Below, piece after piece: positions 4,159 to 64,000 of a DNA stretch of 64,000 nucleotides; position 1 is the first letter of the stretch, and each line of letters opens with the position of its first letter. The translations under genes were made by a program, and so were the position numbers. The notes beneath the pieces are model-generated. The model was not told the origin of the DNA. It saw nothing but the letters and a program-made list of their open reading frames with translations, and did no database searches. This stretch comes from a virus: the IMG/VR virus record IMGVR_UViG_3300021591_000018, positions 12,754 through 76,753 of that record; one strand, given 5' to 3'.

Positions 4159-4605
4159 CTCTCATCACTCCGAGTGCTTCAAGTAAACACTCATACCGGT
4201 TAATGCCCTTTCGAATGTACGACAATGCAAGTTCGTAGTCAGCTGGGAAGACAAGTGCGTCTGTCAACTTATTCAAAGCTGTATTGTAGAGATAGATCGC
4301 ACAGTTCTCAACTTCGGCTAGATAGGCGTAGATCTGTGTCTGGATCGTTGCGTAGTCGATACAGTAAGTTCGTTCCTCCTCTGTACGGTACGTCTTGAGG
4401 TCACCAACAACGTCCTCCTTCAGTAAGTCAGGAATGCCGATGATCTTCCAGTTGTCAACTATCTTCGAAACCGACACACGATTCGTAAAACCGAGTTCCT
4501 CGTGGATACGCTTTCCAAGTCCTGATCCACGCATCTGACGTGGGAACAGCACCTTGAGCGGGTCAAGTAACAGCACGACGATTTTCGTTACGCCAAGTGT
4601 ACCTT
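4064..4605 (-). CDS. PD-(D/E)XK nuclease (Cas4/RecB-like, no Fe-S cysteines); start uncertain
   Basis: GKRIHE, GIPDLL, DLKT and QTQIYAY motifs; the N-terminal ORF extension overlaps queC. Confidence 0.65.
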
Positions 4606-5288
4606 TAATCGAGGTACTCCGTTGGATCGATGACTCCAGCTTCTCGGAAGGCTCGTTTCCGTTCTCGACATGAACTACAGACACCACAGTGCTTCTCACC
4701 TCCTTTGTAACAGCTCCATGTCAACTCGTATGGGACATCTAAATATGCACCTAGTCGCACAATGTCAGACTTGTACTTCGAGACGAATGGTACCAATACC
4801 TTGAAGTCCGGATCGTCGAGTGCCAACTTTAACGTCTGTTCTAATGCGTTTACGAATTCTGCACGACAGTCAGGATAAACGCCTCTGTCGCTGTAGTGTG
4901 CAGCATACGCTACTGCTTTGGCACCAATCGACTGTGCGATACCAGCAGCGATCGATAGTAAGATCATGTTGCGATTCGGTACGACTGTCACTGCCAACGT
5001 ATCGTAGTGCTCAGCAGTCTCAGGAACTTCAGGTACGTTGATACTCGGTGTTGTTAGTGCAGAACGCAACCACTTTCCAAGCTCAGGTAACTCAACGTAC
5101 AGCCAGTCGACACCTAACGAATGTGCGATCTTCCTTGCTGCATGAACTTCCTTACTGTGTCTCTGGCCGTAGTTGATGGTCAGTGCGGTTACGTCGAAGT
5201 CCAATTCCTTCTTGAGGTAGTATAGCAACGTGCTGCTGTCAATCCCGCCAGACAGCAGCGAAATGACTTTCAACTTATTCGCCTCCAT
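4605..5288 (-). CDS. queC: 7-cyano-7-deazaguanine (preQ0) synthase
   Basis: LSGGIDS, YGQRH, VPNRNMILLS, YPDCR and SCY..G..HCGVCSSC. Start is ATG 5288 or TTG 5273. Confidence 0.95.
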   Translation of the reverse strand: MEANKLKVISLLSGGIDSSTLLYYLKKELDFDVTALTINYGQRHSKEVHAARKIAHSLGVDWLYVELPELGKWLRSALTTPSINVPEVPETAEHYDTLAVTVVPNRNMILLSIAAGIAQSIGAKAVAYAAHYSDRGVYPDCRAEFVNALEQTLKLALDDPDFKVLVPFVSKYKSDIVRLGAYLDVPYELTWSCYKGGEKHCGVCSSCRERKRAFREAGVIDPTEYLD

Positions 5289-5859
5289 AGTGCTTCTTCC
5301 GTAAGTTGAAGAACTCCTCACGTGCAGCTGGATTCCAGAGGAACACACCCCGACAAGCTGAACAAACGTACGGTCTTGGTTGGAAGCCTTCGACCATCTT
5401 GCAGGTGTGGACTGCTGACGAGACGACTATCACACCGTACGGCTTTGCGGCTTCCCAGAGTTCATCTGCAATCTGTGCAGTCATTCGCTCCTGTATCTGG
5501 AAGCGTAGTGCGTACTTCTCGACCAGTTGGTCGAGCTTCGACAAACCGACGACTCTCTCCTTTGGTATGTAGCCGATGTCAACGGTACCGTAGAAAGGCA
5601 TGAAGTGATGTTCGCACAACGTTGTAAATGGGATCCCAAATTCAGCTACAAGGTCAGCCTTACCCTCGTATTGTCTCCAGAGTTTCACCTCACGATTGTA
5701 GCCCTCCGTGAAACGCAGCCACGTTGTCGCAATTCGTATCGGTGTTCTACGTAAGTCCTCAGACTCTGGATCCAGTCCTAGTATCTCGATTATCTCCTTG
5801 ATGTGTTCTGCGATCTTCTTGGCTCTCTCATCCTCTTCATACGGTTCCAACAGACTCAT
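5275..5859 (-). CDS. folE: GTP cyclohydrolase I
   Basis: TPIRIA, LCEHHFMPF.G, VGLSKL, QIQERMT.QIA and HTC. Confidence 0.95.
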   Translation of the reverse strand: MSLLEPYEEDERAKKIAEHIKEIIEILGLDPESEDLRRTPIRIATTWLRFTEGYNREVKLWRQYEGKADLVAEFGIPFTTLCEHHFMPFYGTVDIGYIPKERVVGLSKLDQLVEKYALRFQIQERMTAQIADELWEAAKPYGVIVVSSAVHTCKMVEGFQPRPYVCSACRGVFLWNPAAREEFFNLRKKHYGGE

Positions 5860-6548
5860 TTTCCAGGTTCACCTCCCCAGATTAGATAGTGCAATTGAGG
5901 CAATATTCGCACATCATACTCAGGAAGATAGGAAGTTGACCATTCGAACAACTTCTCGAGGAACTTCATATAGCCGAATTCTGAGGCAGTCTTCGATTCA
6001 GGTTGTAATACAACCGTTACAGCACTTTCAAGTTCATATAGGATGTCTCTAACTTCCCAAAGATCTGCTGGACGAGTTATGACGAACTTCAAGTAGGACT
6101 CATTTCCATAGAGTTCAGATTGCTCAACAATATAGTTCAATACGTCCATCTTAACTGCATCGGGAATGCCTGAGTTTTTGAGTTTTGGCGACACACTCCA
6201 AACGTCAACCACCTCTAACAACCCATCGGATGGCTTAATCGTACCATTCGTCTCTACCATCAATGGAAAGAAGTCTGTCTTGTTTAGGAACTCTGTGAGT
6301 TCCTCGTGATCCTGGAGGAGTGGTTCACCTCCAGTCAGAACGAGTGCATCCTCCTCGAGCCCTTGTACTGATACCACCCGGTAAAGTTTATCGACCGTGA
6401 TGTCATGTCCTCCAGCCCATGCGTACTTCGAGTCGCACCACTTACAGCGCAAATTACATCCAGCAAACCGTACGAAGACTGACGGTTTGCCAATGTACAA
6501 GCCCTCGCCCTGGATGCTACGGAAGATCTCAACTACCTTCAAAGCCAT
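5856..6548 (-). CDS. queE: 7-carboxy-7-deazaguanine synthase (radical SAM)
   Basis: SIQGEG, CNLRCKWCD (CxxxCxxC), TGGEPLLQ, ETNGT, SPKL and PQLH. Confidence 0.95.
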   Translation of the reverse strand: MALKVVEIFRSIQGEGLYIGKPSVFVRFAGCNLRCKWCDSKYAWAGGHDITVDKLYRVVSVQGLEEDALVLTGGEPLLQDHEELTEFLNKTDFFPLMVETNGTIKPSDGLLEVVDVWSVSPKLKNSGIPDAVKMDVLNYIVEQSELYGNESYLKFVITRPADLWEVRDILYELESAVTVVLQPESKTASEFGYMKFLEKLFEWSTSYLPEYDVRILPQLHYLIWGGEPGK

Positions 6549-6967
6549 CGCACAGTCACCCCTTGAGTTGGACCTTCTGATATCGAGATCGCGGACACGA
6601 CTTCATATCCAACTGCTCCATCGATTGCAAGTTTGATCTCCTGTGCAAGCCCCTCGACGGTTGTGTAACGGACCGGTTTGAGATTGTCGACAAGCGGTTT
6701 CGCTTGCGTACGACTTTCATATATTAATCTCTGAAAGAGCTCCATATAGTCTTCAGGTATCAGTAACTTATGATCGAAGTTCTCCTTTATTGCTTTCTTC
6801 ACGATTCCAAAGTCAACTGACATACCGATTTCGTCCAACCTATCGACAACCAACTCAACAGTAACGAAGTACGTATGTCCATGTATACCTCCACATTTCG
6901 GATGCCCTGGAATAAAGTGAGCTGCTTCGAATGTCGTCTCAACAGTCAATCTCATACGAGGTTCCAT
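6539..6967 (-). CDS. queD: 6-carboxy-5,6,7,8-tetrahydropterin synthase
   Basis: FEAAH, C..IHGHTY, DFG.VK, FDH and TTVE.LA. Confidence 0.9.
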   Translation of the reverse strand: MEPRMRLTVETTFEAAHFIPGHPKCGGIHGHTYFVTVELVVDRLDEIGMSVDFGIVKKAIKENFDHKLLIPEDYMELFQRLIYESRTQAKPLVDNLKPVRYTTVEGLAQEIKLAIDGAVGYEVVSAISISEGPTQGVTVRWL

Positions 6968-15971: not shown

Positions 15972-16223
15972 TCAGGCATAGATTCCCGATGGTGCCTCAG
16001 ACTCGTCGTAGCCATAGCCTTGTTGTGTTAGTCGCTTGGCGATCTCGAGACATCCAATCCGTGATGGCAGACTGAGTGTCTCGAGGAGATTTAGGATTGC
16101 AGTTAGTACGGCTACAGAGCGATTCTCCTCTCGCTCAATAGGCCGTATGAGTTTGACGAGCTGTTCGACTTGCCTGTTGATGACCTCGGCTATCTGTTCT
16201 CCATTAAGTTCTTCTCGATCCAA
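15972..16223 (-). CDS. Hypothetical protein
   Basis: 83-aa ORF within the operon. Confidence 0.5.
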   Translation of the reverse strand: MDREELNGEQIAEVINRQVEQLVKLIRPIEREENRSVAVLTAILNLLETLSLPSRIGCLEIAKRLTQQGYGYDESEAPSGIYA

Positions 16224-16711
16224 CGTCCGACCTCCTCAAGTTGCTCGAGGCTTTTTGCACGATAGCAACATATCTTACCGGTGCTGAAAATGTTCAATGT
16301 CACACCGAGCTCTGGCAAACGCAAAGTTGCAGCTGGAAACGTCTCCGGTTCGTAGACGACGTTGTCGAATTTCTGCCAGAGGTCCTCGAGAATGACTGTT
16401 CGGTGAAGGTCGAAGTAAGCTACGACTTGAGCGATACGCACGTCGACAACCTCAACGTTGTTGTAATATCTTTTAATGAGCTCCATAAGTTCATCGACGT
16501 ATTTTTGATAGTTTGCAGACTTAATTCCGTTAAGTGTCACTTTTCCTGACTCTGCTAAGATAGCACGTACACCTGATGGTAACTTGAAGAAGACAGCAGT
16601 GAATCTCCACGGATCATACTTTGCCTTCGGTATGACTTGTGCAACTTCGTCGAGGTCGAATCTCCTGTTCAACTGCACTACGACTACACAGTTCTTGATG
16701 GTGTAGTCCAT
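16190..16711 (-). CDS. tbp: TATA-box binding protein homologue
   Basis: Two TBP repeats: YDPWRFTAVFFKL...ESGKVTLNG and YEPETFPAATLRL...IFSTGKICCYRAKS. Confidence 0.9.
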   Translation of the reverse strand: MDYTIKNCVVVVQLNRRFDLDEVAQVIPKAKYDPWRFTAVFFKLPSGVRAILAESGKVTLNGIKSANYQKYVDELMELIKRYYNNVEVVDVRIAQVVAYFDLHRTVILEDLWQKFDNVVYEPETFPAATLRLPELGVTLNIFSTGKICCYRAKSLEQLEEVGRWIEKNLMENR

Positions 16712-39810: not shown

Positions 39811-40535
39811 TTATTTTGAGACAGCTCCTACGAGTCGCTTGCGGTTGTATTCGATCATCTCCTGAAGCGTATGATGGCAGTTCGCACACCGAATCTCACC
39901 CCAATCGAAGTACTTACGAGTACCACAGAATGGACACCCTGTTATGAAGGTGTAGAACCGTAAGATGGACTCATCGTCTAAGAAGTCGCGGATTACTTCC
40001 TTTGCTGTAGCATCTGGAAGGTAGATGACGGGTTCGAGTGGAGACTCTCTAGTCTTGTCATCGTCATCAAGTACGATCCAACAGTTGTTGTCGCTGGCTT
40101 CTAGTCGAATCTTTAGCTTTCCAATTTGCCGTTCGGGTTTGATGTTTAGGGTTTCGAGTAACATCCTCAATCGATTCAAGTCGGTCATATTCCTAACCTC
40201 CTCTTCCACTCCTCGACCATCTCTTGGAGTGTATGACCACAAACTCGACAACGTTTAGTGTTCCAATCGTAACTCCATTCACAGAATGGACAGCCTTTCT
40301 TATAGGCATAGAACCTGAGAATGAAATCATCGTCGAGAAAGACACGGAGAATCTCCTCAGGATCCGTACGATAAGAGAACGTCAGAATGAAGGTTTGATC
40401 TCCATCACATACTGTTAAATATACGAAGATGTCTTTAGGTTGCCACTCCAGTTTAACTGTTAGCTTACCGAGTCGACGTGTTGGGCTGACGTTTAAGATG
40501 TTCGTTAAATGGATGAGCTTCTGAATGTCCGTCAC
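39811..40535 (-). CDS. Two paralogous Zn-ribbon proteins (39811-~40188, 40185-40535)
   Basis: Both contain MTD..., GKL...LE, FLDD..ILRFY, GCPFC and HTLQEM. Confidence 0.75.
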
Positions 40536-40981
40536 TCGTTTACCTCCTTTATCTTCCTAACCTGCGACTTATGCATCTTTACGGGTAGTAGGGATTTAGC
40601 CTCATCGAACTGGACGATGATGTTGTTTCCTTCAACAGCAATTACTGTGCCTCTCATACCTCGCATAAGTCCTGTGACGACCTCCACTCTGTCGTTGACG
40701 TTGTAAGTCACTTCAGGTGGTCTTACGAGTCGTTCAACTTCTTCGACTGTGACCATTCCTGGGAGAATCCCTCGAATCCATCGACACCCATCCTTGTATG
40801 TTTCGGAGACTAACTGTCGAACGTACTCGTAGTACTGTGTCTCGATGTAAATGTAACCAGGCGTTCTGTCAGAGAATATCATCGAGGTTATTGGGATGTT
40901 TGTCCGTTCAGCTACATCTGCTAACCAGTGTGCTGTTGCCTCTTCCTGATCCCTTAACACACGGATTACGAAGAAAGGCAA
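40532..40981 (-). CDS. spt5: Transcription elongation factor Spt5/NusG homologue
   Basis: NGN domain (FVIRV...QE, PGYIYIE) and KOW motif (DRVEVVTGLMRGMRGTVIAV); GGAGGTG RBS. Confidence 0.85.
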   Translation of the reverse strand: MPFFVIRVLRDQEEATAHWLADVAERTNIPITSMIFSDRTPGYIYIETQYYEYVRQLVSETYKDGCRWIRGILPGMVTVEEVERLVRPPEVTYNVNDRVEVVTGLMRGMRGTVIAVEGNNIIVQFDEAKSLLPVKMHKSQVRKIKEVNE

Positions 40982-42432: not shown

Positions 42433-43072
42433 TTTCCTCTCTTACTAAAACTTCTTTAATCGACTTTATGTGTCCCTCGTAGTAGAGTTTCTTCAGTAGC
42501 TTGACAGTTCCGTACGTTGTCAGTACTGTCGTTCCATCTTCGAGGTACAGTCGTACTCTATACTTGATGTTTGGCCAGTTCCACCACTCTCCCTCGATGA
42601 TCGGTTCGATGGCAGTCACTCCGAGTGATCTGAGTATCATTGCGTTGATCGGCAATCCTGTCTTCGTTCTGTACCGTATCCAATGTGTGACCTTCTGCTT
42701 GAATCGTCTGACGTCCTTTCTGTAGCCTTCTTTGAGTTTCCGTTCCCTCCATCGTCTGAAGACGCTGTCCTGGTACTCACCCCATCGTTCACGTAGAATC
42801 TTACGTCGTTCCTCTGCCTTTCGTAGTGCTTCCTTGTGTCGTTCGATACGTCGCTTCATGATCTCCTCGACAGTCAATAATTCGAGTTTCTGTGCCTCTC
42901 TGTAGCTTGTCAGTACATAGCCTTTGATGTTGATTCCCTCGATTGTATGACTTAGTGGCTTTGCCTGTTGGATGTCGTGTCCTGTCAACTGTATGCCGAA
43001 TGTCGAGTGCTGGATACGTCGATAGCGTTTCTCTGTCTTTGGTTCTTCGAAGTCTATCTCTTCACTCATCAC
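42413..43072 (-). CDS. Basic coiled-coil hypothetical protein
   Basis: 219-aa ORF, R/K/E-rich. Confidence 0.6.
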   Translation of the reverse strand: MMSEEIDFEEPKTEKRYRRIQHSTFGIQLTGHDIQQAKPLSHTIEGINIKGYVLTSYREAQKLELLTVEEIMKRRIERHKEALRKAEERRKILRERWGEYQDSVFRRWRERKLKEGYRKDVRRFKQKVTHWIRYRTKTGLPINAMILRSLGVTAIEPIIEGEWWNWPNIKYRVRLYLEDGTTVLTTYGTVKLLKKLYYEGHIKSIKEVLVREENGENNE

Positions 43073-43250
43073 TTTCCACCCTTCTTTAACTCTTTGACGA
43101 TCTTCTCACAGACAGTACGTGCACATCGAATGTCCTCAGCTACCTGTTGTGCATAGTTCGTAAGAAACGCTAGTAAGAACTCCGTCTCCTCAGACGTTAA
43201 CTTGATGGTAATTTCATCTTTCATCTCACTATCCACCCTTAACTAAAAAT

Positions 43251-43529
43251 TTAAGGTGAGTTTGGCTGTGGTATTGGTCTCAGTCTACCGTTCATCAACG
43301 CATACGCGTACCTCGTTATGACTTTGATTCCAGTGACAGGGCACTCCATGTACCAGATGTCGACGCCATCCTTCGTCTCAACTTTGACCTTCCATGCTAG
43401 ATCGTTTGGTTGACATTTCCGACATCGCAGACATCGTATCCTCATGGCTGCCATGGTCCTATTCGTTACGACTGTCTGATTATTCGGACTTAAGTCGTTC
43501 CAATTCATCTTAATCACCATCATCTTCAC
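43251..43529 (-). CDS. Small Cys-rich protein; normal-composition paralogue of the C-less genes
   Basis: CLRCRKC...WKVKVE..DGVDIWYMEC...GRLR aligns with 43976-44245. Confidence 0.7.
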   Translation of the reverse strand: MKMMVIKMNWNDLSPNNQTVVTNRTMAAMRIRCLRCRKCQPNDLAWKVKVETKDGVDIWYMECPVTGIKVITRYAYALMNGRLRPIPQPNSP

Positions 43530-43537
43530 TTAAAAAT

Positions 43538-43945
43538 TTAGGAGGTAACGTATCCAAACTGTTCCACTGAGTTACTGTAAACAACGTATACATTAACCCA
43601 TGTTAGCTTGTGATAATCGAATGCATCTGCAACCTTCTTTACTGCATATATTTCAGCTCTACTCTCTACAGCCATCTTTCGGCAATAGCCTGGTAGGTCG
43701 TCAACGCACTCGGTTTCAATTCTTTGAAAGGTAGCTACCGCAAATCCTGCGTCTTCAAGCACCTTTCGTTGAGCTTCGAAACACTGATAATGTCTGTCGA
43801 GCTCTTTTACTCTCGCTTCAAGGTCTTTCTTCGTTATTACAACTCTCAGATAGTGCGGGTTGATGCATCTCCAGATTAAGGACTTAATTTTGTCCAAAGC
43901 ACGAATTAGTTCGTAATTGATTTCAAACTTCATCTTAATCACCAT
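43538..43945 (-). CDS. Hypothetical protein
   Basis: ORF preceded by the repeated leader motif. Confidence 0.65.
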   Translation of the reverse strand: MVIKMKFEINYELIRALDKIKSLIWRCINPHYLRVVITKKDLEARVKELDRHYQCFEAQRKVLEDAGFAVATFQRIETECVDDLPGYCRKMAVESRAEIYAVKKVADAFDYHKLTWVNVYVVYSNSVEQFGYVTS

Positions 43946-43975
43946 TATCCACCCTTACTCAAAATAAAAAACAAA

Positions 43976-44245
43976 TCAAATCCAACCTCTTCCTCTATTC
44001 CTCATCAAACCTCTCAATCTTCCACTAATCAAATTATACACTCTCACCTTCCTATCTTCACACTCCATACACCACACATCCACTCCTTCTACCACCTCTA
44101 CTTTCATTCTCCATTTCAACACATTACTTCCCTTACATCTCCCACAACTCAAACATATCCCTCTACATACTCTCAAAACATCTCTTCCTACAACTAAATC
44201 AAACCCATCCTCACTCTTCCTAACCTCATTACCAAACCAACTCAT
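43976..44245 (-). CDS. C-less Cys-rich small protein
   Basis: Intact ORF with no Ala/Pro/Thr/His/Gln; paralogue of 43251-43529; GGTGA RBS. Confidence 0.75.
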   Translation of the reverse strand: MSWFGNEVRKSEDGFDLVVGRDVLRVCRGICLSCGRCKGSNVLKWRMKVEVVEGVDVWCMECEDRKVRVYNLISGRLRGLMRNRGRGWI

Positions 44246-44282
44246 ATAATCACCATTATCCTCCCTTCACTAAAAAATTTTT

Positions 44283-44558
44283 TCAAAACATACCTAACTC
44301 ACACATTCTATAAAACCACTCCCAACTCCTAAACCAACTCCAACACCCATTTCTCAACCTTACTTTCAAAATCCTACCACTATACAAATCTACAATAACC
44401 TTCTCACAATATCCTTTCCAACCTACCACTCTTAATCCATCACATACCTTCTTCCCAAACCTATTAAACTCACACTTCCTACAAATCTCCTCTAATCTCT
44501 CCAAACCTAATCTACTTTCAACCCTAACCTTCATCATCCAACTCTCCATCTTTAACAC
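44283..44558 (-). CDS. C-less small protein
   Basis: Intact ORF with no A/P/T/H/Q; ICRKC motif. Confidence 0.6.
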   Translation of the reverse strand: MLKMESWMMKVRVESRLGLERLEEICRKCEFNRFGKKVCDGLRVVGWKGYCEKVIVDLYSGRILKVRLRNGCWSWFRSWEWFYRMCELGMF

Positions 44559-44782
44559 CTCACTCTTAACCCTTTAACCCAATTTATCAACTCACCTACC
44601 TCCTCACTATTCAAACCTTCAATCTCAACCATATTTCTACTCCAATCATAACTAAACCCACACCTATACTTCCTCTCACCTTCCTCTACCCACAAACCAA
44701 CCTCCTCTAACATTTCCCTCCTCAAATCCCAAATTCTCACAATATACAATCCATTCAACCTCATAACATTAACAACTACCAC
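44552..44782 (-). CDS. C-less small protein
   Basis: Intact ORF with no A/P/T/H/Q; repeated leader upstream. Confidence 0.6.
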   Translation of the reverse strand: MVVVNVMRLNGLYIVRIWDLRREMLEEVGLWVEEGERKYRCGFSYDWSRNMVEIEGLNSEEVGELINWVKGLRVRC

Positions 44783-44826
44783 CTTTAATCACCACTATTC
44801 ACCCTTTCTTAAAAAAACAAACAAAC

Positions 44827-45018
44827 CTAAATAACCCTTACACCCCTATACTCACACTCAATACCCCACAACTCACCACCTTTCTTACCTTTCCTAACCA
44901 CCACCTTCCACATCCCACCTTTACAATCTTCATACCTACTACAATTCTTACAAATACCCCTTAAACAACCCAAAAAATTCTTTTCAACTCTTATAACCTT
45001 AACAAACCTATCATACAT
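44827..45018 (-). CDS. C-less Cys-rich small protein (same family as 43976-44245)
   Basis: RGICKNC...WKVVV......LWGIECE.R.VRV. Confidence 0.7.
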   Translation of the reverse strand: MYDRFVKVIRVEKNFLGCLRGICKNCSRYEDCKGGMWKVVVRKGKKGGELWGIECEYRGVRVI

Positions 45019-45232
45019 CTATATCACCATTCTCTTCCCTTTACAAAAATCACCTTTACAATATCTATCAATTCTTTCTTTCGGTCTCTTCCCCACGTGT
45101 CCCCGTGAAATTGGTTAGACGAACTGAAAACGGAAACTCAAACCGCACGTACGACCTAAGAACCCGACAGTTAGCGGACATTGACAGTCGGTCAACACAC
45201 ATAAATATCAGTAAACAGTCAATATCTACAGC

Positions 45233-45694
45233 TTGGACTGTAAAGTCTGTCAGTTGCCGGATGCCCCGGAGATCGTAAGACGTATCAAAGCCAACGAAAT
45301 CTCAATAGCCGAAGGAGCGAAGCTACTCGGTGTTAGTTACCGAGAACTCTGGTTGCACCTTAAGAATTGTGTGGTCGACAAGCCACGCGAAACTTCAGTT
45401 GATACACTCCAACTACTCGAGGAATTGCTGCGCATCCTACGACAGAAGCTGCTTGAGCTCGACAGAATGGAAGTCTCAACAGCCAACATTTCCGCTCTTG
45501 CTAAAGTCGCCGACAGTCTACGGAAGACTTGCATGGACATCGAGCGTCTAACAGGTAAATTAAGAGCGGCACCGCTTATACAGCTGCAGAAGATCACCAT
45601 CCACTACGAGAACCTTCTACAGATCATCTCAACGGAACTTTGTCCTGAATGTCGGCGTAAAGTCCTGAAGAAGCTCGAGGCGATGACAGTATGA
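45233..45694 (+). CDS. Putative terminase small subunit
   Basis: N-terminal HTH and coiled coil; overlaps the large terminase start. Confidence 0.6.
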   Translation: MDCKVCQLPDAPEIVRRIKANEISIAEGAKLLGVSYRELWLHLKNCVVDKPRETSVDTLQLLEELLRILRQKLLELDRMEVSTANISALAKVADSLRKTCMDIERLTGKLRAAPLIQLQKITIHYENLLQIISTELCPECRRKVLKKLEAMTV

Positions 45695-48231
45695 TCGATC
45701 CGAGAGAGAAAACCATCAAGATACTAAAAGCATTAGAAGACCCTGTCTACTTCTGTGAAGACGAGTACTTTCTCGGTGCGAAGCTCTACCCGAAGCAAGC
45801 TGAGGTGCTACGGAAGTTCTATAACGGTGGATACAATGAACTTGTACTCATCGCCGGGATGAGATGTCTTTCACCAGAAACCATCATCTACACAAACCCG
45901 TATCCAAAGCCGCTGAAGGAGTTGAACGAGGACGACCTTGTTCTTACGTTCCGTAACGGTAAATTCGAGTGGTGCAGATGCCAACTCATACGTCAACGCG
46001 CACGTATGGTCTACCGTCTTGTAACGTACTCAGGACGTGAAATCTACGCAACTGAGAATCACCCGATTCTAACGTCGAGAGGCTGGATGACGGTTTCATC
46101 AATGCTCGAATCGACCTCGTTACCTTACGTTGCAATGTGCCACAAAGTTCCTCCACCACTTCACCCAATACACGATCCAGATTATGCGACTGCTGTTGCC
46201 CTATTCCTCTCAGAGGGTTGCTGGATAACTTCGACTCCACTCTTCTCGAATCGTGACCCTGAGCTGATCGACACTTTGCGAACTGTACTAAAACGTCGAT
46301 TTAATGGAGAGTTACGTGGAGGACCGAAGGACTTTCGCATCATAAGTAAACAATTCCGTGAGGAGCTACATGAACTAAAAGGCAAGAAGTCCGCTGAGAA
46401 GTTCATCCCAAAGAGAGTCTTCGAACTTGACGATGAAAGTCTTAAGAAATTCATCTACTACTTCTGGAGAGGTGACGGTGGAATCGAAGGTGGTAAAGTT
46501 CACTTCTACAGCACAAGCAAGCGCTTACTGCAACAGCTACAATTTCTCCTCCTCCGATTCGGGATACGTAGCTACTTACGTAGACGTCCACAGTACAAAT
46601 ACTACAAACGTGCGCACCCAGAAATGAAGAGTACGAATGAGAGTTACGATCTCGTCGTACATGACGACATTTCAACGATCATTCCTGAGGCACCAAGGTG
46701 TCAACATAATGGCACATCACCAATGGATAAAATCGGACTCAAGTTAAGAGACCTTCGAGAAATTTGTGAAACCTCACTCTGGAAGCTACGTCAGCTTATG
46801 TGTACGAACACAAAGAACACCATAAGCTTAAAGAATGCACGTAAGATTGCTCATCTCATACCAATGTTCGGATGGGAAGACGTTTACTTCGAACCAATCG
46901 TTAGGATCGAGCCTATCGGAGTTCGTGAGACGTACGACTTATCTGTACCTCATGAAGGTCATGCATTCGTCGCGAATGGTATCATCGTTCATAACAGTGG
47001 CAAGACATTTCTCGCTTCTTGTTTCGCAGCTTACGAGGCGTTCAAGCTCTTGATTAAGCCTGACCCAGCTGCCTACTACAACCTGGCTCCAGGTAGTCCG
47101 ATCTTCATTGTCGTAGTTGCGACTTCTGAGAAGCAGGCTTACGATACGATATTCAACGAAATTAAACAAAAGTTAATGAGAAGTCCGTTCTTCCGTGAGT
47201 ATCATCCACGATTCCTCATGAACGAAATCATCTTCCAGTCAAAGAATGTACGCATACTCTGTGGTACGTCTTCATCTGCCTCATTAGTAGGTCGAAACGT
47301 TAAGTTAGCGATTTTTGACGAGCTGGCTCGATTCGAAGAGTCAACCAGTAAGAGAGGAGCTTGGGAAGTTTACACGTCATTGAAACGTTCAACTGCAACC
47401 TTTGGAAAGGAGGGCTACTGCATTTCGATTTCCTCGATCCGTCATCCAAATGACATTATGATGACTCTCTATCGTCAAGCTCAGACTAACCCAAGGATGT
47501 TCGCACTTAAGTTTGCCACGTGGGAGTTCAACCCAAACTTCAAACTCGAGGACTTTAAGTTCGAACTTCAACGAGACCCACTTGCATTCTGGAGAGACTT
47601 CGGTTCGAAGCCGTTTGCTGGTCAAGCACCCTTCTTCGCTAACATTGACGTCGTACCCTTCGATAGCAGTATACCAAACAACCTTGAGCTGCTCGCACGT
47701 GGAGAGAAGACCTACTTCAATGAGGAGGCAACCTATGTCTTGGCTGGTGACCCTGCTATTCGCCATGATGCATTCGGACTCGCTATCGTCCATGAAGTTG
47801 AACCTGGTCAGTACGTTTGCGACGGACTTTACCGTTTCAAACCAATGGGGACCGACCTTTCTCCAGTCGAGATAAAGAACTTCATCCTTCGCGTACTTGA
47901 CCACTGTAACGTCATAACTGCAGTTTTCGACACCTGGAACTTCCCAGAACTACAGGAGGAAATTCGCTCACATGGTGTCGAAGTGCTCAACCACATCGTC
48001 CGTAAGGAAGATTACGATCGCTTCAAAGAATTCTGTTTCAAACGGTGCATCCGAATATGTGACTATCCAATTCTTCGTCAGGAACTCGAACAACTTCAAA
48101 TTGTCAATGTCAAGAGGGTTGATCACCCACCTGGTGGAAGCAAAGACGTTGCCGATGCATTAGTCAATGCTCTATGGGCGATTTCCGAATTTCAACCTGA
48201 GCTACCGTTGAACGTGGCGGTGATCGTATGA
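45691..48231 (+). CDS. terL: Terminase large subunit containing an intein
   Basis: LYPKQ, Walker A AGMR|SGKT, ATSEKQA, IFDE (Walker B), and nuclease motifs AGDPA..HD and DHPPGGSKDVADA. Confidence 0.92.
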   Translation: MIDPREKTIKILKALEDPVYFCEDEYFLGAKLYPKQAEVLRKFYNGGYNELVLIAGMRCLSPETIIYTNPYPKPLKELNEDDLVLTFRNGKFEWCRCQLIRQRARMVYRLVTYSGREIYATENHPILTSRGWMTVSSMLESTSLPYVAMCHKVPPPLHPIHDPDYATAVALFLSEGCWITSTPLFSNRDPELIDTLRTVLKRRFNGELRGGPKDFRIISKQFREELHELKGKKSAEKFIPKRVFELDDESLKKFIYYFWRGDGGIEGGKVHFYSTSKRLLQQLQFLLLRFGIRSYLRRRPQYKYYKRAHPEMKSTNESYDLVVHDDISTIIPEAPRCQHNGTSPMDKIGLKLRDLREICETSLWKLRQLMCTNTKNTISLKNARKIAHLIPMFGWEDVYFEPIVRIEPIGVRETYDLSVPHEGHAFVANGIIVHNSGKTFLASCFAAYEAFKLLIKPDPAAYYNLAPGSPIFIVVVATSEKQAYDTIFNEIKQKLMRSPFFREYHPRFLMNEIIFQSKNVRILCGTSSSASLVGRNVKLAIFDELARFEESTSKRGAWEVYTSLKRSTATFGKEGYCISISSIRHPNDIMMTLYRQAQTNPRMFALKFATWEFNPNFKLEDFKFELQRDPLAFWRDFGSKPFAGQAPFFANIDVVPFDSSIPNNLELLARGEKTYFNEEATYVLAGDPAIRHDAFGLAIVHEVEPGQYVCDGLYRFKPMGTDLSPVEIKNFILRVLDHCNVITAVFDTWNFPELQEEIRSHGVEVLNHIVRKEDYDRFKEFCFKRCIRICDYPILRQELEQLQIVNVKRVDHPPGGSKDVADALVNALWAISEFQPELPLNVAVIV
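45865..46995 (+). mobile_element. Intein (377 aa) with LAGLIDADG homing endonuclease
   Basis: Starts CLSPET, block B ATENHPIL, endonuclease motifs LFLSEG and FWRGDG, ends FVANGIIVHN followed by Ser. Confidence 0.93.
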
Positions 48232-49695: not shown

Positions 49696-52600
49696 ATGAA
49701 AATCACCTTCCTTGGTACGAAGGGCTTCATCGAGGAAAGTAGTTCAGACCATAAGTATCACTCGTCTATTCTGATTGAGCGTGGCAACACACGTCTGCTC
49801 ATCGACTACGGTCGACTTCACCCGAAGTCACTTGACGAGATTAAGCCGACACATATCCTTTTGACTCACGGTCATCCTGACCATTGCTTCGGTTTCCGTG
49901 ACGAGACAGAAGATGGCATTGATGTCTATATGCTTGACCGTGTCTGGAATAGTTTACCGGAGAAAGTCCGTGAGAAGCTCGACCACAAGCCCTTCCATAT
50001 GCACCACTGGGAGAAGATCGGTGACCTCGAAGTCTACGCATTTCCTGTCAGTCACTCGATCGACTTTCCGACAAACGGGTTCCTCATTCGTAACGACAAG
50101 ACTGTTTGTTACTGCCCGGACGTTTTGTCGATAACTAATCGAAAGTTAATTCTCAGGAATGCCGACATTTACATTGGTGACGGCTCTTACATCACTGATA
50201 AGCCTGGTCGTGTACGCTACCATAAGGAAACTGGACGACCATACGGTCATGCACTCATACGTGATCAGGTCAAGTGGTGTGCTCAATCCGACGTACCGAT
50301 AGTCATCTTTACTCATTTTGGAAAAGAGGCAGTTGAACATCCCGATAAGCTTAAGGAACATCTCAAAAACCTCTCGAAGGAGTTTGATGTTAAGGTTATG
50401 GAGGCGAAAGATGGTATGACAATCGATACGACTAAGCTCGGACAGCCCGGAATCTACCTCGTCCCACCTCATGCAAGACTTATCACTGAGGGAAAGAAGA
50501 CAGCCATTGTGAGTACACGTCCATGCCCAAAGCAGTACCTCGACGTTCCGATACATTTGATCGAGGACAAGAAATCCTACGGGTTGATCCGAATAACAGA
50601 ATGCCACGGTCCACTTGACGCAGAGTTTGTACGGACACAACTTCGTCACCGACACCAAATCACGGATCGTGAATGGAGAGACTGGTGGCCTGATGCTAAG
50701 CAAGTCTACGTTTACGACTTCAAAATCGATAGGCTCTGGGACGAGCCAGTTCCAGTTGAGGTACCGCAAGGTATTCAAAAGTGGATACGCGACGTCAGGG
50801 TCAACCTTGCTGAACTTACAGCATACGCACTTGACGAGGAGGGCAACCTGACAAAGTTCGGTCAGGCGAAACAGTACAGAGTAAACGGTAAGACTATCGA
50901 AATCATAGGTTCAGGAGTCGAACGTGCGAAGAAGCTTGTCGAGATGGGTGTTAAGAAGGTCATCTGTGCAGCTATTGGTGAGGCCTCACGGACCGTTCTC
51001 GAACAGAACGGAGTTAAGGTTGAGGTTCGTGCCTCGCTTATCAAACCTGAACGTGTGAAGGAAGTTCTGAAGCATCCTGAACTACTCAAGGAGTGGACCG
51101 ATGAACAACTATTGGACGACCACCGTATCTGCCATCTATGGGCAGGAAAGAACTGGAAGACGTTGCCTCACGACTTGACCAAAGAAGAGGTCAAACGCTT
51201 CCACGATCTGTTAGTCGAGGAAATGAACCGTCGCGGTATGGAGCATACCACACCGTTGGAGCTTGAACGATCTGTGACGACAACCGAACGACAGTCATAC
51301 GATAATCTTAAAGATAATCTTCTTGAGAGTTCCAACATTTCTGAAGTCAACAAGCAAATTGTCGAGGAAGTTAAAGAACCATCTCCATATGCACCTGTTC
51401 ACCATATTGAGACCGGTGAGGACACAATAGAACTCGAGACAGTCCTTGAAGCTTGGAGTAAGCCTATCATACTCAAGAAGGGCTACGTAACGTTAGTCGG
51501 TGGACTAAGCAATCATGGTCGGACAGATGGTGACATCGACGTTTTGATCGGTGATCGTGAATGGGTGACTCATATCCATCAACCACTTCTATTCCGACTT
51601 GGACGTGCACTTCCAGATGACCTCGGTGAACGAATACAAATGATGTTCGTCGGTGAATACGGTGGTCCGTTCACTAACCACATACCAATCTACGACTTGG
51701 TTCTCATCCCATCAGCAGACCGTCGACTTATCCGTATGGAGAAAGTACCAACTCGAATCAAGCAACTTCGTGACCGTCAGGCCTTCAAAGAAGCGCTTGA
51801 ATCCTATCGTGAAGATGAAGTGAAACCACTCCGTTTCGTCATACCACTGAAAGGCTATCGAGCACATTACCGATTCGCTGACCTTGTTCCAGAAGTCGTC
51901 GAGGAGTGGTTCGAACGTGACGTTTATCCAATCTACGCTCAGAAGAAATACGATGGCTTCCGTGTACTGTTGATGAAGCAAGGTGACAAGATCATCATTC
52001 GTTCAGAAGACGGTGAAGACGTTACAAAACGCTTTCCGAAGATCATCGAACAAGCTAAGAAGATCCTTCCACATACCTGTACGCTTGACATCGAAGCTGA
52101 ACTTTGGAAAGATGGTAAACATCAACCACGTGAGGAAGCAGCTGGATATGCACATGCAAGAACTCCACCTGACGACAGTGGTTTTGTCTTCAATGTCTTC
52201 GACGTACTGTACTTCTACGATGAATCAGTTGAGCATCACGAGTTGAGTGGTACAATTGGTGACCTCCACAAACATCCATATGAGCTACGTTTACGCTACC
52301 TATCACTAATCGACTTCCCACAGTCAACTGACGACACACCAAAAACTCCAGCATTTAACCTGACTCCAACGTACGTTGCTCATAATCCTGAGGAATTAGC
52401 AAAGCTCGTACGTAAGTGTTCAGACTTCATTGCCTCAGAAGGTGCAGTCGTAAAGTCAAGCAAGAGCGACTATCCACTCGACGGACTAACCGATCAGTGG
52501 CTCAAATTCAAGAAAATGGCTGAAATTCACGCAATCGTACTTGATAACATCGAAACCAAGACGAAAGGTGTCTACAACCTCGTTGTAGGTGTCCGAGTTC

Positions 52601-53772
52601 CTCCAGGGTGGAAAGTCCCAGAGAAGCATCTCAGAGAGCTTAACGGTAAGAAGTACATCGTTATCGGTAAGACGTTTAATGTCAAAGGATATAAGAAGCC
52701 TGGTACGATCGTTACTGTGAGTTTCCATACGCTCAACCACTACATCGACAGTCAAACTGGTGAACAGTGGATTCACATCTACGAGCCAAAGTTCATCGAA
52801 GTTCGTGAAGGACAGAAGACACCTGACTCAGCTGAAGACGCAATTAAGATTGCTCACGACCTCGAATTGCTGACCGTCAAGAGACTTGCCCTCACTCGGT
52901 TCCCAATGGATGACAAGCCACACCAGGCAGTCCTTCAACACCACTACCGATGTGAGCTCGAACAACTTCTACCTGATGTCGGTGAACCAGGAAGTCCCTG
53001 GTTTGAGTTAGCATTAGACGAACTGATACAGAGACTTGGTGACCACATTGACAAGATCCGAGTCTTCCTCGGTCGATCTGTTCACACTGACTTCCGAATC
53101 AAAGTCAATGACCACCTTGAGGGCTTCACCATTATGGATGCAAAGCCAGGTGCAATCAAGGAACCCGTAACTTCAGTCGAACAAGCAAAAGAGTTGGAGA
53201 AAGACTGGGACAAGTACTTCAAGCTCTCCAACGATCCACAGACATACATTGCTTCACCACGACGTAAGCTATGGGTCGAACAGAAGAAGAGTGAACCGAA
53301 GGAATGGCTCAACGTCGAACGAGTCGTCAAACCAGGTGAAGTCGGTGCAACTAAACATGAGTACGGTGTCTTCTCAATCTTCGACCGACCAATCGTCTAC
53401 TTTGGCGCTGTTAAACCAGACTTCCTGGAGATGTTCCTCTACGGTAAGAAGTTTAACGGTCGTTGGGTTGTACGTCTACTCCCAAATCCATGGAAGCGAG
53501 AGATGCCACGACGTGAATTCGTCTTACTGATGTGGAAGCCTGAGGACCAAACACCTTACGTCCTTTCAAGTCGTGCTGTCCGGAGGAAATGGATTCCACC
53601 GAAGGGTATCAGTTGCCTACCACCAGAAATACGTCAACAGATACCCGAAGAATACCGCTACTGGAAGTTCGACGACAAACAGAAGCGACTTGAAGTCCGT
53701 GATAAGCTAGTCGAAGCCATTCGTAAAGGGGAGGTGAGAATACGTCCAGTGACGGTCAAACGGAGAAAGTAA
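49696..53772 (+). CDS. Multidomain protein: MBL-fold hydrolase + ASCH/PUA-like + NifX-like + NTase-like + ATP-dependent ligase + LigD-phosphoesterase-like
   Basis: THGHPDH; LITEGKKTA; VICAAIGE; G.TDGDIDVLI; KKYDGFR, FDVLY, EGAVVK, WLKFKK; LQHH...HTDFRI. Confidence 0.75.
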   Translation: MKITFLGTKGFIEESSSDHKYHSSILIERGNTRLLIDYGRLHPKSLDEIKPTHILLTHGHPDHCFGFRDETEDGIDVYMLDRVWNSLPEKVREKLDHKPFHMHHWEKIGDLEVYAFPVSHSIDFPTNGFLIRNDKTVCYCPDVLSITNRKLILRNADIYIGDGSYITDKPGRVRYHKETGRPYGHALIRDQVKWCAQSDVPIVIFTHFGKEAVEHPDKLKEHLKNLSKEFDVKVMEAKDGMTIDTTKLGQPGIYLVPPHARLITEGKKTAIVSTRPCPKQYLDVPIHLIEDKKSYGLIRITECHGPLDAEFVRTQLRHRHQITDREWRDWWPDAKQVYVYDFKIDRLWDEPVPVEVPQGIQKWIRDVRVNLAELTAYALDEEGNLTKFGQAKQYRVNGKTIEIIGSGVERAKKLVEMGVKKVICAAIGEASRTVLEQNGVKVEVRASLIKPERVKEVLKHPELLKEWTDEQLLDDHRICHLWAGKNWKTLPHDLTKEEVKRFHDLLVEEMNRRGMEHTTPLELERSVTTTERQSYDNLKDNLLESSNISEVNKQIVEEVKEPSPYAPVHHIETGEDTIELETVLEAWSKPIILKKGYVTLVGGLSNHGRTDGDIDVLIGDREWVTHIHQPLLFRLGRALPDDLGERIQMMFVGEYGGPFTNHIPIYDLVLIPSADRRLIRMEKVPTRIKQLRDRQAFKEALESYREDEVKPLRFVIPLKGYRAHYRFADLVPEVVEEWFERDVYPIYAQKKYDGFRVLLMKQGDKIIIRSEDGEDVTKRFPKIIEQAKKILPHTCTLDIEAELWKDGKHQPREEAAGYAHARTPPDDSGFVFNVFDVLYFYDESVEHHELSGTIGDLHKHPYELRLRYLSLIDFPQSTDDTPKTPAFNLTPTYVAHNPEELAKLVRKCSDFIASEGAVVKSSKSDYPLDGLTDQWLKFKKMAEIHAIVLDNIETKTKGVYNLVVGVRVPPGWKVPEKHLRELNGKKYIVIGKTFNVKGYKKPGTIVTVSFHTLNHYIDSQTGEQWIHIYEPKFIEVREGQKTPDSAEDAIKIAHDLELLTVKRLALTRFPMDDKPHQAVLQHHYRCELEQLLPDVGEPGSPWFELALDELIQRLGDHIDKIRVFLGRSVHTDFRIKVNDHLEGFTIMDAKPGAIKEPVTSVEQAKELEKDWDKYFKLSNDPQTYIASPRRKLWVEQKKSEPKEWLNVERVVKPGEVGATKHEYGVFSIFDRPIVYFGAVKPDFLEMFLYGKKFNGRWVVRLLPNPWKREMPRREFVLLMWKPEDQTPYVLSSRAVRRKWIPPKGISCLPPEIRQQIPEEYRYWKFDDKQKRLEVRDKLVEAIRKGEVRIRPVTVKRRK

Positions 53773-61575: not shown

Positions 61576-64000
61576 ATGCCGTTCGACTACGAGAAGTACG
61601 TTAGGATTTGGTTCGACTGGGTCATCAAGCACCCTGATGTACCGAAGCGGATCGTAGCTGACATGGAAATGCTACTGGGTTCGCTAAAAGACGTCGACCG
61701 CATCATGCGTGCACGTGGTATTGAGTTTAAGGTTCCTCCAGAAGTTCTGAAAACATTCAAACTTTTGAAGGAGAGTACTGACGACTATCGTCAAATCGCA
61801 GAGTCTGTAACTGAGTCACTTGACGTGGTCCGGGACGTACTCGCTTCCGTCGATCAAAATGCTGTACGTCTCGGGACCGATATCACTGCGATGGGCGCAA
61901 CATTTGAACGGTTAACTGATGTGTCTGAGGACTTCATGTTCCTCTACAAGAAAGGTCAGGCACTTTATCGATTCTTTGCACGTGTCGACGGTATGCTGGA
62001 TAGCATAAAACGTCGAGCCGAAGATGCCGGTGTGGCGATGACGACTTGGATGCGACAAATGCGACGACGATTCCGTCTGCCGGTTCCAGGTCCAGCCGCG
62101 ACTTACTACGGCATCCTTCGAATGCGTCGAATCGCCCGTGAGAACATTCGAATGCTTCAGAACCAGCTACGATGGGCGAGGGCAAACATAAAGCAGGACT
62201 ATAAACGTGGAATTGTGATGCGTGAGCTTGCAAGGAAGATCGCGTTCGCTGAAGCAGCTGCGAAAGACCTCTACGAAACTGGACAGAAGATTTTACCGTG
62301 GACCCAACGTCTGACTGAAGCATCGAAGATAATGATTGAGCTCCCACGGAAGAAACTCGAATACGACATTATCGCTCGTAAGATAACAGCTTCTGGTGAG
62401 GAAGTCCGTAAGAAGTTCCGTGACATCGCAAGTGATGTTGCCGAGCTCGAGGAGCGTATCGACCAAGCCTTCAAACCAGCAGAGGAGGAAGTGGAACTAT
62501 TTCGTCGATCAACCGAGAGTCTTGCTGAGTCTGCAGATGCCGTCTTTGGTGGAATGGATACGACAGGCATGGACGAATTCGCAAAGTCGGTTGCAACGGT
62601 CCGGACACTTTGTGAGGAACTTGGTCGTGATGCTGAGGAATACCTACAGCCACTATTCCGTTATGGTGAGACTCCGGAGGCACTTGAATACCTCGATTGG
62701 GTCATTCAAAAACTGCGTGATGACCTAGATGTACTCCGACGAACTGGCGGACGTGCATTCGAAGACCTAAGGACAAGAGCTCGAGAAGTTCGTGCACTTC
62801 CCGCTGCGTTACCAGGGTTACCTGAATTACCTCCTGCTTCAATCTTCGATCGATTACAGGCACTCTACTACCGTCTTCGTCACAATGTCACACGTGCAAT
62901 CTCGCCGTTGCGTGGTTTATTCTCCTCATGGAAGTTCGAGGCAAGACGTACAGCCGACGTTAACTACTTTGCGGTGCGAAGTTTCTACGATCTCTGTGAC
63001 TCACAGCGACAGCTTGCACGTGACATGATCTATCAGTACTTCCAGTGGCTGAACGTATACAAGGTTGTGCGTGACTACATTGTCCAGCTTTACGATGCTG
63101 CTGGAATGCAGGAGATTCTTGGCGCTTCCTCACAACAGCTTTCCCGGCGTATCAGTAACCTTGCTGCACGCATAACGAACGCAATTCTTGCTGGTAAGGA
63201 GCAGGAAGAGCAGCAACGTAGTGCTGGGGCAGTCTTACGTAGGTTCATGCGTGAGATCGGACGGACATCTTGGCGTCTGAGCTGGTTCGGATACCGTATG
63301 GTAATGGTCGGTAGGATACTCTCACGTGCATGGATTCCGCGAGTACAAGACGCAGTTGCAGCCCTAGTCAACTGGCAGAAGACATTGCCAACTGTAATGC
63401 TTGCTATTGGTATGCTCGCGGGAACGATGAACCTTACACAGGAACGGTTTGAAGGCCTCTGGGACACTGCAACGAGGATCATCGAACAAGGTCCGGAGAT
63501 GGAAGCCGCATGGTTCCACTTCTCTGCTGCACTACTCGGAATTTCGGCTATCATCGGTGAACAGGTGAAGCCGTTACTGTTCGCACTTGGTGATATGCTT
63601 CTGAGACTCGCTCCAGTTATTGAGACTACACTTGCACCTGCCCTTCAGAGCCTTGTCGATATGATCATCCAAAACTTGCCACTCATAGAGCAAATTATTG
63701 CGCAAGCACTACCTGCATTCGCTGAAGGCTTCAAACTTGGTGCCCAAGCAATGATAACTTTCATGAAGTTCTTTGCACCAGTTCTACCCGGACTTGCTAA
63801 GTTGCTGGGAGTTATGCTCGCATTTGCACCGATACTCGAACCAATTGGACACTTACTGTACTTCGTGGGCACTGCATTTGCTGGACTTGCAATGACTGTT
63901 GCATTCGTCTCAAGTGTCTTATCTATTGCACAGACAGCGCTGAGCACACTTGCGATGACACTCGGCTTGACAAACCCCGCCACTGCTGCACTCATAGCAG
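61576..64000 (+). CDS. Tape measure protein, 3'-truncated by the window
   Basis: Long helical ORF from ATG 61576 with no stop seen before the window end; Ala/Leu/Gly-rich amphipathic stretches; follows the chaperone. Confidence 0.8.
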   Translation, partial: MPFDYEKYVRIWFDWVIKHPDVPKRIVADMEMLLGSLKDVDRIMRARGIEFKVPPEVLKTFKLLKESTDDYRQIAESVTESLDVVRDVLASVDQNAVRLGTDITAMGATFERLTDVSEDFMFLYKKGQALYRFFARVDGMLDSIKRRAEDAGVAMTTWMRQMRRRFRLPVPGPAATYYGILRMRRIARENIRMLQNQLRWARANIKQDYKRGIVMRELARKIAFAEAAAKDLYETGQKILPWTQRLTEASKIMIELPRKKLEYDIIARKITASGEEVRKKFRDIASDVAELEERIDQAFKPAEEEVELFRRSTESLAESADAVFGGMDTTGMDEFAKSVATVRTLCEELGRDAEEYLQPLFRYGETPEALEYLDWVIQKLRDDLDVLRRTGGRAFEDLRTRAREVRALPAALPGLPELPPASIFDRLQALYYRLRHNVTRAISPLRGLFSSWKFEARRTADVNYFAVRSFYDLCDSQRQLARDMIYQYFQWLNVYKVVRDYIVQLYDAAGMQEILGASSQQLSRRISNLAARITNAILAGKEQEEQQRSAGAVLRRFMREIGRTSWRLSWFGYRMVMVGRILSRAWIPRVQDAVAALVNWQKTLPTVMLAIGMLAGTMNLTQERFEGLWDTATRIIEQGPEMEAAWFHFSAALLGISAIIGEQVKPLLFALGDMLLRLAPVIETTLAPALQSLVDMIIQNLPLIEQIIAQALPAFAEGFKLGAQAMITFMKFFAPVLPGLAKLLGVMLAFAPILEPIGHLLYFVGTAFAGLAMTVAFVSSVLSIAQTALSTLAMTLGLTNPATAALIA

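Follow-up and report, generated by a model that had tools for sequence, protein, structure and literature searches.

The virus record IMGVR_UViG_3300021591_000018 (76,753 nucleotides (nt), here called G000) carries a tract of 1,163 nt whose coding strand contains no cytosine at all, and the four small genes inside it encode proteins made from only 15 amino acids. The window that we analysed is a 64,000-nt stretch of this record, to which all coordinates refer unless stated otherwise, and the tract occupies positions 43920 to 45082 on its minus strand, with step-like borders and, correspondingly, a plus strand free of G. It forms the first 1.16 kb of a 44-kb leftward arm and lies 150 nt from a terS-like gene. 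We are highly confident in the combined reading that these are immediate-early genes of an archaeal tailed virus and that the block is kept by selection at the head of the 44-kb arm, beside the packaging genes.

An earlier sequence-only reading of the window had pointed out a G-free plus strand over 1,163 nt with sharp borders, and both observations were borne out by simple counting. The plus strand from 43920 to 45082 consists of 429 C, 389 A and 345 T with not a single G, and the second-longest G-free run, in the window as well as in the whole of G000, measures 50 nt in a genome with 22% G. Counted per 100 nt, G on the plus strand drops from 22 to 0 and is absent from eleven consecutive bins before it is back at ~20 within one bin, which is a pair of steps with no gradient. 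Read as coding strand the tract has zero C, and the corresponding RNA is 37% G and 67% purine. We named the genes along the minus strand from the proximal (terS-side) border as g4, g3, g2, g1, g5, the paralogue and g7. The exclusion of C extends to all spacers, to the ~64 nt located 5′ of g4, and to the leader of g5 together with its first 4–5 codons, so that the distal border falls at codon 5 of g5, with the first C at 43919. The proximal border is found 64 nt 5′ of g4, immediately after a conserved element (45083–45120) that reads CGGGGA...GAGACC on the coding strand, shows GGTCTC on the plus strand at the border, and is present in G000 and in the related contigs G001 and L012 introduced below. 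Between this element and g4 lies a C-free, purine-rich region (45019–45082, minus strand) with a conserved box GATTTT(T/A)G(T/G)AAA, which is probably the TATA/BRE region and would then act in the promoter.

RNA without C is predicted to be almost unstructured (about −5 versus −22 kcal/mol per 100 nt). A search of the tract region against Rfam gave zero family matches, blastn of the same region against phages gave zero matches as well, and within 44900–45400 only short repeats of up to 15 nt are present. A role of G-quadruplexes was rejected, as neither the tract of G000 nor that of G001 contains a canonical motif despite 37% G, and as GGG runs are rarer than in shuffled sequences (24 versus 37 and 27 versus 53, respectively).

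All four ORFs (open reading frames) of the tract are intact and located on the minus strand. The first gene of the leftward arm is g4 (44827–45018, 63 amino acids (aa), sequence identical to P0003), a member of a Cys-rich small-protein family with GGTGAT 5 nt before its ATG, followed by g3 (44552–44782, 76 aa), which overlaps the start of g2 and has no family match. The product of g2 (44283–44558, 91 aa, or 88 aa if counted from the ATG at 44549; P0004) is a distant member of the Cys-rich family, to which g1 (43976–44245, 89 aa) also belongs. The four intact minus-strand ORFs with ribosome-binding sites that had been described before were thus recovered, the ribosome-binding motif being the archaeal-type GGTGAT located 4–5 nt before the start codons. 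In a sequence of A, G and T only with the composition of the tract, 10% stop codons are expected, and the probability of 89 open codons is ~6e-5. The lack of Ala, Pro, Thr, His and Gln noted in the sequence-only reading is complete: none of the 319 residues of the tract proteins is one of these five, which make up 21% of the residues elsewhere in the genome (P ~1e-33 for their absence). Synonymous codons containing C are missing from the tract genes too, with 57% of the codons elsewhere holding a C (P ~1e-83 given the amino acids). The start codons ATG, GTG and TTG and the stop codons TAA, TAG and TGA need A, T and G but never C, and therefore C is the sole base that a coding strand can lose. 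Whatever pressure strips one partner of the G:C pair from a single strand of a coding region has to yield a C-free coding strand, and for this reason the choice of strand cannot separate causes at the RNA level from causes at the DNA level.

Among themselves the tract genes are either paralogues with 26–39% identity or unrelated. A Pfam and PHROGs search with the four tract proteins assigned no family. The predicted structure of the Cys-rich family (pLDDT 83) comprises two strands, a helix, three strands and a short helix together with four conserved Cys; Foldseek with this model gave zero matches at E ≤ 0.001, and the best VIA hit (Z 5.8), to beta-alpha-beta pieces of a nucleotidyltransferase-like kind, stays within the noise. 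Just outside the tract a paralogue of g1 and g4 with normal composition is present (43251–43529, minus strand), whose product is 39% identical to the 89-aa protein of g1. The positions at which the paralogue has C align in g1 with A in 11, G in 13 and T in 16 cases, and hence a C-to-T signature is absent. Both the presence of this neighbouring gene and the claim that its differences from the tract gene are not simple C-to-T changes had been put forward before and agree with our alignment.

Using the family protein P0013 we reached a second virus, G001 (IMGVR_UViG_3300021591_000021, 76,879 nt), which is colinear with G000 at ~65–70% nucleotide identity. Its counterpart of the tract, 1,778 nt long and C-free but for one C, occupies the corresponding position next to terS and likewise follows the GAGACC border. 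The genes of this tract differ from those of G000, give no blastn match, and encode a 177-aa SLOG/YspA-like protein (phrog_289, 2.5e-13; PF10686, 1.3e-5), five small ORFs and one member of the Cys-rich family. A homologue of the SLOG protein from ENA, 64% identical, also lacks Ala, Pro, Thr, His and Gln. The lone C belongs to a spacer of 77 nt, where it follows a T7 run and precedes TTATATAT by 7 nt, and is probably not transcribed. A third contig, L012, originates from another sample and has a TerL 97% identical to that of G001. It is G-free over at least 907 nt up to the contig edge, and of the 22 substitutions that separate it from the G001 tract none creates a G. An insertion of ~170 nt relative to G001 (L012:141–313, coding strand reverse) adds a 49-aa C-free ORF right after the SLOG gene, showing that gene gain and loss inside the tract obeys the C-free rule.

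A profile that represents the Cys-rich family and was built from g1, g4, g2 and the paralogue retrieved 18 proteins from 1.84 billion representatives. P0012, P0013, P0016, P0018, P0019, P0020, P0023 and P0024, with 59–102 aa and each in a separate 50%-identity cluster, are devoid of Ala, Pro, Thr, His and Gln; P0017 contains a single Thr, and P0011, P0014, P0015 and P0022 are family members of normal composition. P0002, an orthologue of g1 from another data set, is 85% identical and keeps the 15-letter alphabet at all 13 differing positions. Altogether at least 10 diverged proteins from two families do without the five residues (P0002, P0012, P0013, P0016, P0018–20, P0023, P0024 and P0152), and an identical g1 protein occurs on 3 contigs among the JGI/IMG and ENA records. 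Queries with g1 and the Cys-rich family in viral, metagenome and genome collections gave zero matches, as did a TerL search of the genome-contig collection. In a distant relative (L001/G002, portal 45% identical) neither the tract nor QueC was found, but with only a 23.7-kb fragment at hand this is uninformative.

As G001 and L012 have other C-free genes in the same slot and genes come and go within it, the rule is tied to the slot and has persisted through deep divergence. Judged from these sequences, it belongs to the position and not to particular genes, and the C-free state is old and kept by selection. Long-term selection had also been proposed in the sequence-only reading, which named close relatives with C restored at T positions as the observation that would speak for recent hypermutation; instead, the relatives keep the C-free slot with other genes, the ORFs are free of stops and the diverged homologues keep their 15 letters. 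To an artefact of assembly or conversion, or to C-to-T hypermutation in a recent burst, we assign a practically negligible probability. The tract is present on 3 contigs that represent three samples and two lineages, with the g1 protein itself recorded on as many contigs in two databases, its ORFs are intact although a stop would be expected about every 10 codons, the comparison with the paralogue gives no C-to-T signature, and the diverged homologues all retain the reduced alphabet. A product of hypermutation or conversion was therefore rejected, given zero stops, the absent C-to-T signature and relatives that keep the C-free state.

The genes at the head of the arm share more than their neighbourhood. 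A leader composed of a T run or an A/T palindrome, AAGGG..GGATAATGGTGAT and then the start codon precedes g4, g3, g1, g5, the paralogue and g7, and only g2, which overlaps g3, is an exception without it. The same leader is thus found before the C-free genes and before three genes with normal composition, namely g5 (43538–43945, minus strand), which is the first gene of normal composition and whose true start is probably the ATG at 43933, the paralogue, and the small g7 (43069–43236, minus strand). Along the early region the layout of A/T-rich box, GGTGA, small ORF and U-tract is repeated, and the units end in T runs, not in hairpins. Coding-strand T runs of six or more are concentrated in the first 2 kb of the arm (4/6 in G000 and 6/12 in G001). 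From the shared leaders and the clustering of T runs in these 2 kb we conclude that the early region is an array of mini-units.

G000 is a tailed virus with a terminase, a family B DNA polymerase, NrdD and a 1,358-aa MBL-ligase fusion, and its genes are arranged in two divergent arms, a rightward structural arm that starts from terS (45233) and the 44-kb leftward arm for early, replication and nucleotide-metabolism functions. The terS-like gene (45233–45694, plus strand) shows a weak match to phrog_7067 and has a homologous ORF beside terL in G001. In the sequence-only reading the tract was described as abutting the terminase genes and as a candidate for the first-expressed region, and it does lie beside terS and terL and heads the early arm. 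A cluster of direct and inverted GACAGT/ACTGTC repeats (45175–45260) covers the intergenic region and the first terS codons and is a candidate packaging (pac/cos) site; if other tailed phages are a guide, the tract may accordingly sit at the genome end that is packaged last and ejected first. About 3 kb downstream of the tract the virus encodes an Spt5 homologue with NGN and KOW domains (40532–40981, minus strand) and, further along the arm, a TATA-binding protein (TBP) with two repeats (16190–16711, minus strand), both conserved in G001. Their presence suggests a takeover of host transcription at initiation and elongation. The viral TBP and Spt5 found matches only in the four archaeal control genomes, and from these archaeal-only matches together with the GGTGAT motif we conclude that the host is an archaeon.

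Why should the first genes of a virus avoid one base so strictly? The total absence of one base suggests a single-hit process, and among the explanations that we considered we rank first, while holding it only tentatively, that C-free transcripts cannot be cut by FttA/aCPSF1, the archaeal factor for transcription termination and the onset of RNA decay. Where nascent RNA is exposed, this factor cleaves it at CA or CC, and it subsequently removes the polymerase (PMC8501993); it is described as the general archaeal termination factor (PMC7515710, PMC11616081), and FttA-dependent termination requires Spt5, whose KOW domain bridges FttA to the elongation complex (PMC11616081). In termination, aCPSF1 cooperates with U-tracts (PMC8716108). 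Early messages without C would offer no site to C-dependent RNA machinery of the host, with FttA/aCPSF1, docked on RNA polymerase by Spt5, as the main candidate. As a single cut would end a transcript, each C would be costly and immunity could come only through complete removal, and the virus would obtain its first proteins at full length before it has altered the host. The C-containing genes further down could later rely on the viral homologues of Spt5 and TBP. In bacteria the same logic would apply to Rho, which requires C-rich, G-poor RNA (PMC8501993).

The proposed immunity to FttA is based on the absence of CA and CC, which are missing over 1,164 nt in G000 and over 1,859 nt in G001. The six C inside this 1,859-nt zone are all part of CG or CT (P ~0.03). 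Together with the position of the lone C of the G001 tract in a spacer, the cluster of T runs in the early region and the viral Spt5 and TBP, this zone would fit a cause that acts in transcription. We also considered whether C-free first genes might be a general viral strategy in bacteria and archaea, by which RNA is hidden from Rho or FttA/aCPSF1 until viral antitermination (here the viral Spt5) is established, and regard this extension as doubtful.

Several observations weigh against escape from FttA/aCPSF1. C is present in the remaining 43 kb of the arm, where CA and CC are not depleted, and also in host genes, which sits badly with a need for full immunity in the tract genes alone. In both lineages the tract begins ~40–55 nt upstream of the probable TATA box, and this part is probably not transcribed. 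Furthermore, g5, the paralogue and g7 share the leader just outside the tract yet have normal C content, which suggests a position-defined cause at the DNA level. CG and CT are absent too, though losing CA and CC alone would suffice, and the signal from the context of the remaining C comprises six sites in one genome.

Since the borders are sharp and set by position and the promoter region is free of C too, readings at the DNA level stay in play. One of these readings, which we consider fairly unlikely, is that virion DNA contains 7-deazaguanine in place of G and that a G-free template lets the unmodified host polymerase read the first genes from incoming DNA before viral factors or replication lift the block. 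It would agree with promoter and spacers being C-free as well, as a rule at the DNA level would have it, and with the full preQ0 pathway of FolE, QueD, QueE and QueC in both viruses. In G000 the pathway is encoded by a cluster on the minus strand (4605–6967, with QueD at 6539–6967, QueE at 5856–6548, FolE at 5275–5859 and QueC at 4605–5348) and is supported by Pfam matches of QueC (9.6e-65), FolE (7.9e-50) and PTPS for QueD (1.9e-20), with QueE recognised as radical SAM plus Fer4_12; QueC is also present in G001. Clustered FolE, QueD, QueE and QueC in the replication arm are likewise found in known viral 7-deazaguanine systems such as those of phage 9g, CAjan, CP220 and HVTV-1 (PMC6884629, PMC10516641), and G000 differs from them in that no DpdA was detected in it and in that the modified viruses examined have no G-free tract on the kb scale. 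DpdA is the signature of 7-deazaguanine DNA modification and occurs in every virus known to carry such bases (PMC10516641), but models of known subfamilies did not detect it (PF01702 in G000, the archaeal-virus model PF20314 (DpdA4/DUF6610) in G000 or G001). Among other ORFs considered for this role, the 325-aa neighbour of QueC belongs to a trypsin-like family and a 392-aa ORF gave no informative match. Either a new transglycosylase subfamily or another use of preQ0 would have to be assumed. As controls we took four viruses with measured 7-deazaguanine DNA, with modification levels for three of them from PMC10516641, where CP220 is cited as 100% modified. The longest G-free and C-free runs are 69 and 67 nt in phiSM (~1–2% of G modified), 31 and 47 nt in the archaeal HVTV-1 (30% of G modified), 111 and 78 nt in CP220 (all G modified) and 59 and 158 nt in immuto_2-6A (all G modified). 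None of the four has a kb-scale tract and their other genes have ordinary template G, from which it follows that a G-free template is not a general need of G-modified viruses. The cultured immuto_2-6A, with all G replaced, nevertheless has one 118-aa gene (68330–68686) within 381 nt that hold 3 C, where ~58 would be expected, and this speaks for the idea. Counting against a G-free template, position 7 lies in the major groove and Watson-Crick pairing is unaltered. It is at this position that the modification is located (PMC10516641), and since G makes up 37% of the tract's non-template strand, the duplex would remain rich in modified bases. Of the template free of 7-deazaguanine that the sequence-only reading had offered, what stands is the presence of the preQ0 genes in both viruses, whereas DpdA was not found and the four modified viruses are free of such tracts.

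Evasion of a host defence aimed at C, be it viperin-made ddhCTP, CTP depletion, a C-specific RNase (a CC-cutting Csx1-type enzyme or a toxin) or a cytidine deaminase acting on RNA or single-stranded DNA, with the tract genes as counter-measures, appears unlikely to us. The total absence of C would fit such a single-hit mechanism, the tract genes are the first of the early arm, one of those in G001 is a SLOG/YspA-like putative nucleotide-binding protein, and the lone C of G001 is in a spacer and probably not transcribed; however, the genes further downstream contain C, those for replication without exception, and would not be spared, and the tract proteins are mostly tiny and Cys-rich, with no match to an enzyme-like fold. 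A distinctly improbable cause is the avoidance of restriction sites at the leading end, where the tract would be first out of the capsid and its G-free strand could not hold sites with both G and C, among them every palindrome that contains these bases, allowing the early genes to survive restriction up to the point at which their products take effect. The location beside terS and the repeat cluster resembling a packaging site agrees with it, as do an inward direction of transcription from there, known also from the early region of T7, the count of 6-mer palindromes containing G and C (0 in the tracts versus 11 in an equal-length flank) and the fact that non-coding DNA obeys the rule; C being the only losable base, a C-free coding strand would also be the only route. 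With few enzymes per host, selection per C would be weak, though, and zero C over 1.2–1.8 kb through deep divergence is hard to explain, asymmetric sites of A, T and G remain possible, and the depletion of AT-only palindromes is mild and confounded by the avoidance of stop codons. Highly improbable in our view is a deamination-proof displaced strand, in which the coding strand would stay single-stranded for long in an R-loop or during strand-displacement initiation and, having no C, would be spared C-to-U damage. CTP depletion or ddhCTP, missing restriction sites and protection from C deamination had all been raised in the sequence-only reading and stay rivals. Pairing of G-rich RNA (here 37% G and 67% purine) with a C-rich template promotes R-loops, and these could prime replication; the position-defined rule with its sharp borders, its inclusion of non-coding DNA and the conserved element at the proximal border would suit this as well. 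Archaeal family B polymerases stall at template uracil, and the virus encodes a polymerase of this family. The GC-skew profile, in turn, shows no origin signal, R-loop formation does not require zero C, and the intact, diverging ORFs indicate that coding is the main constraint.

Several known systems resemble the tract in part. With the early region of T7 and the first-step-transfer region of T5 it would share a short block of small early genes at a map end, beside the packaging site and transcribed inward, whose products should take effect ahead of expression from the remaining genome. Gene order and leaders would fit such inward reading. In the T7 and T5 regions restriction sites are avoided and all four bases are used, so that only particular sites are missing, whereas here one base is wholly excluded, and it is this end that would enter first. 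The PeSL cassettes (promoter-early, stem-loop) in variable regions of T4-type phages are likewise swappable mini-units with their own upstream control, a small ORF and a terminator, and differ in gene content between close relatives, as L012 with its extra gene does from G001. The units described here are archaeal and use A/T-rich boxes, GGTGA and U-tracts, stable G-C stem-loops being impossible in C-free RNA. To our knowledge, base exclusion is not part of the description of PeSL cassettes. Laboratory C-less and G-less cassettes, too, can be transcribed in full without one nucleoside triphosphate, with a stop at the first missing base, but these are short, non-coding and artificial, and the tracts are natural, 1.2–1.8 kb long, protein-coding and conserved. 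An extreme strand-specific base skew in coding DNA is known from GRINS (genetic repeats of intense nucleotide skew), which are repeats shaped by gene conversion and depleted of two bases; the tract is non-repetitive except for the ~40-nt leaders and lacks only C. GRINS were rejected because the repeat structure is absent, as can be seen from the repeats of at most 15 nt in 44900–45400 and from genes that are 26–39% identical or unrelated. As a whole, the virus resembles the head-tailed viruses of ANME-1 in the proposed order Nakonvirales (Ekchuahviridae and Ahpuchviridae; PMC9894754), which have genomes of 70–80 kb, a structural and an enzymatic arm, a family B polymerase, NrdD and Que genes. 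A homologue of the 325-aa ORF occurs in a metagenome-assembled genome (MAG) of Methanophagales, and G000 is a candidate member of this group. Neither 'deazaguanine' nor 'TATA' is mentioned in PMC9894754; no search aimed at a base-free tract was made in that paper, and general literature searches turned up none.

The sequence-only reading knew of no described equivalent, and our literature searches, too, found no description of natural genes without one nucleotide. As far as these searches show, natural genes kept by selection with three nucleotides and 15 amino acids are apparently undescribed. They show that a reduced alphabet still allows working proteins to arise and diversify, as exemplified by a recognisable protein of the SLOG family, and that a position-specific constraint acts on the first genes a virus expresses. 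The enforcing pressure has to be strong enough to remove every C and is absent from current models of virus–host conflict; it could come from a factor of termination or decay that depends on C, from a modified base in the template or from a defence directed at C. As such tracts are easily found computationally, they could serve as pointers to immediate-early, probably anti-host genes in uncultured viruses. New for this virus group are the conservation of the slot with turnover of its genes, the two protein families in which the 15-letter alphabet recurs in many members, the element conserved at the border, the preQ0 genes unaccompanied by a recognisable DpdA, together with the negative controls, and the proposal that involves FttA or Rho.

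Further features of G000 can be added. A tape-measure-like ORF (61576–63999 plus the genome start) continues without a stop for a further 108 codons when the contig end is joined to its start, and the record, listed as 'linear, 69% complete', is therefore probably a complete circular map. The gene for the large terminase (45691–48231, plus strand) is interrupted by a LAGLIDADG intein of ~370 aa, inserted just before the SGKT residues of Walker A, and the 73%-identical TerL of G001 is free of it. Between the portal and the scaffold/capsid genes (49696–53772) the 1,358-aa fusion mentioned above joins an MBL-fold hydrolase to an ATP-dependent DNA ligase. The 325-aa ORF beside QueC (3181–4158) is a member of a large family, part of which carries a trypsin-like annotation (PF13365, PF25819), and has hundreds of metagenomic relatives, some of them in MAGs of Methanophagales and Thorarchaeota.

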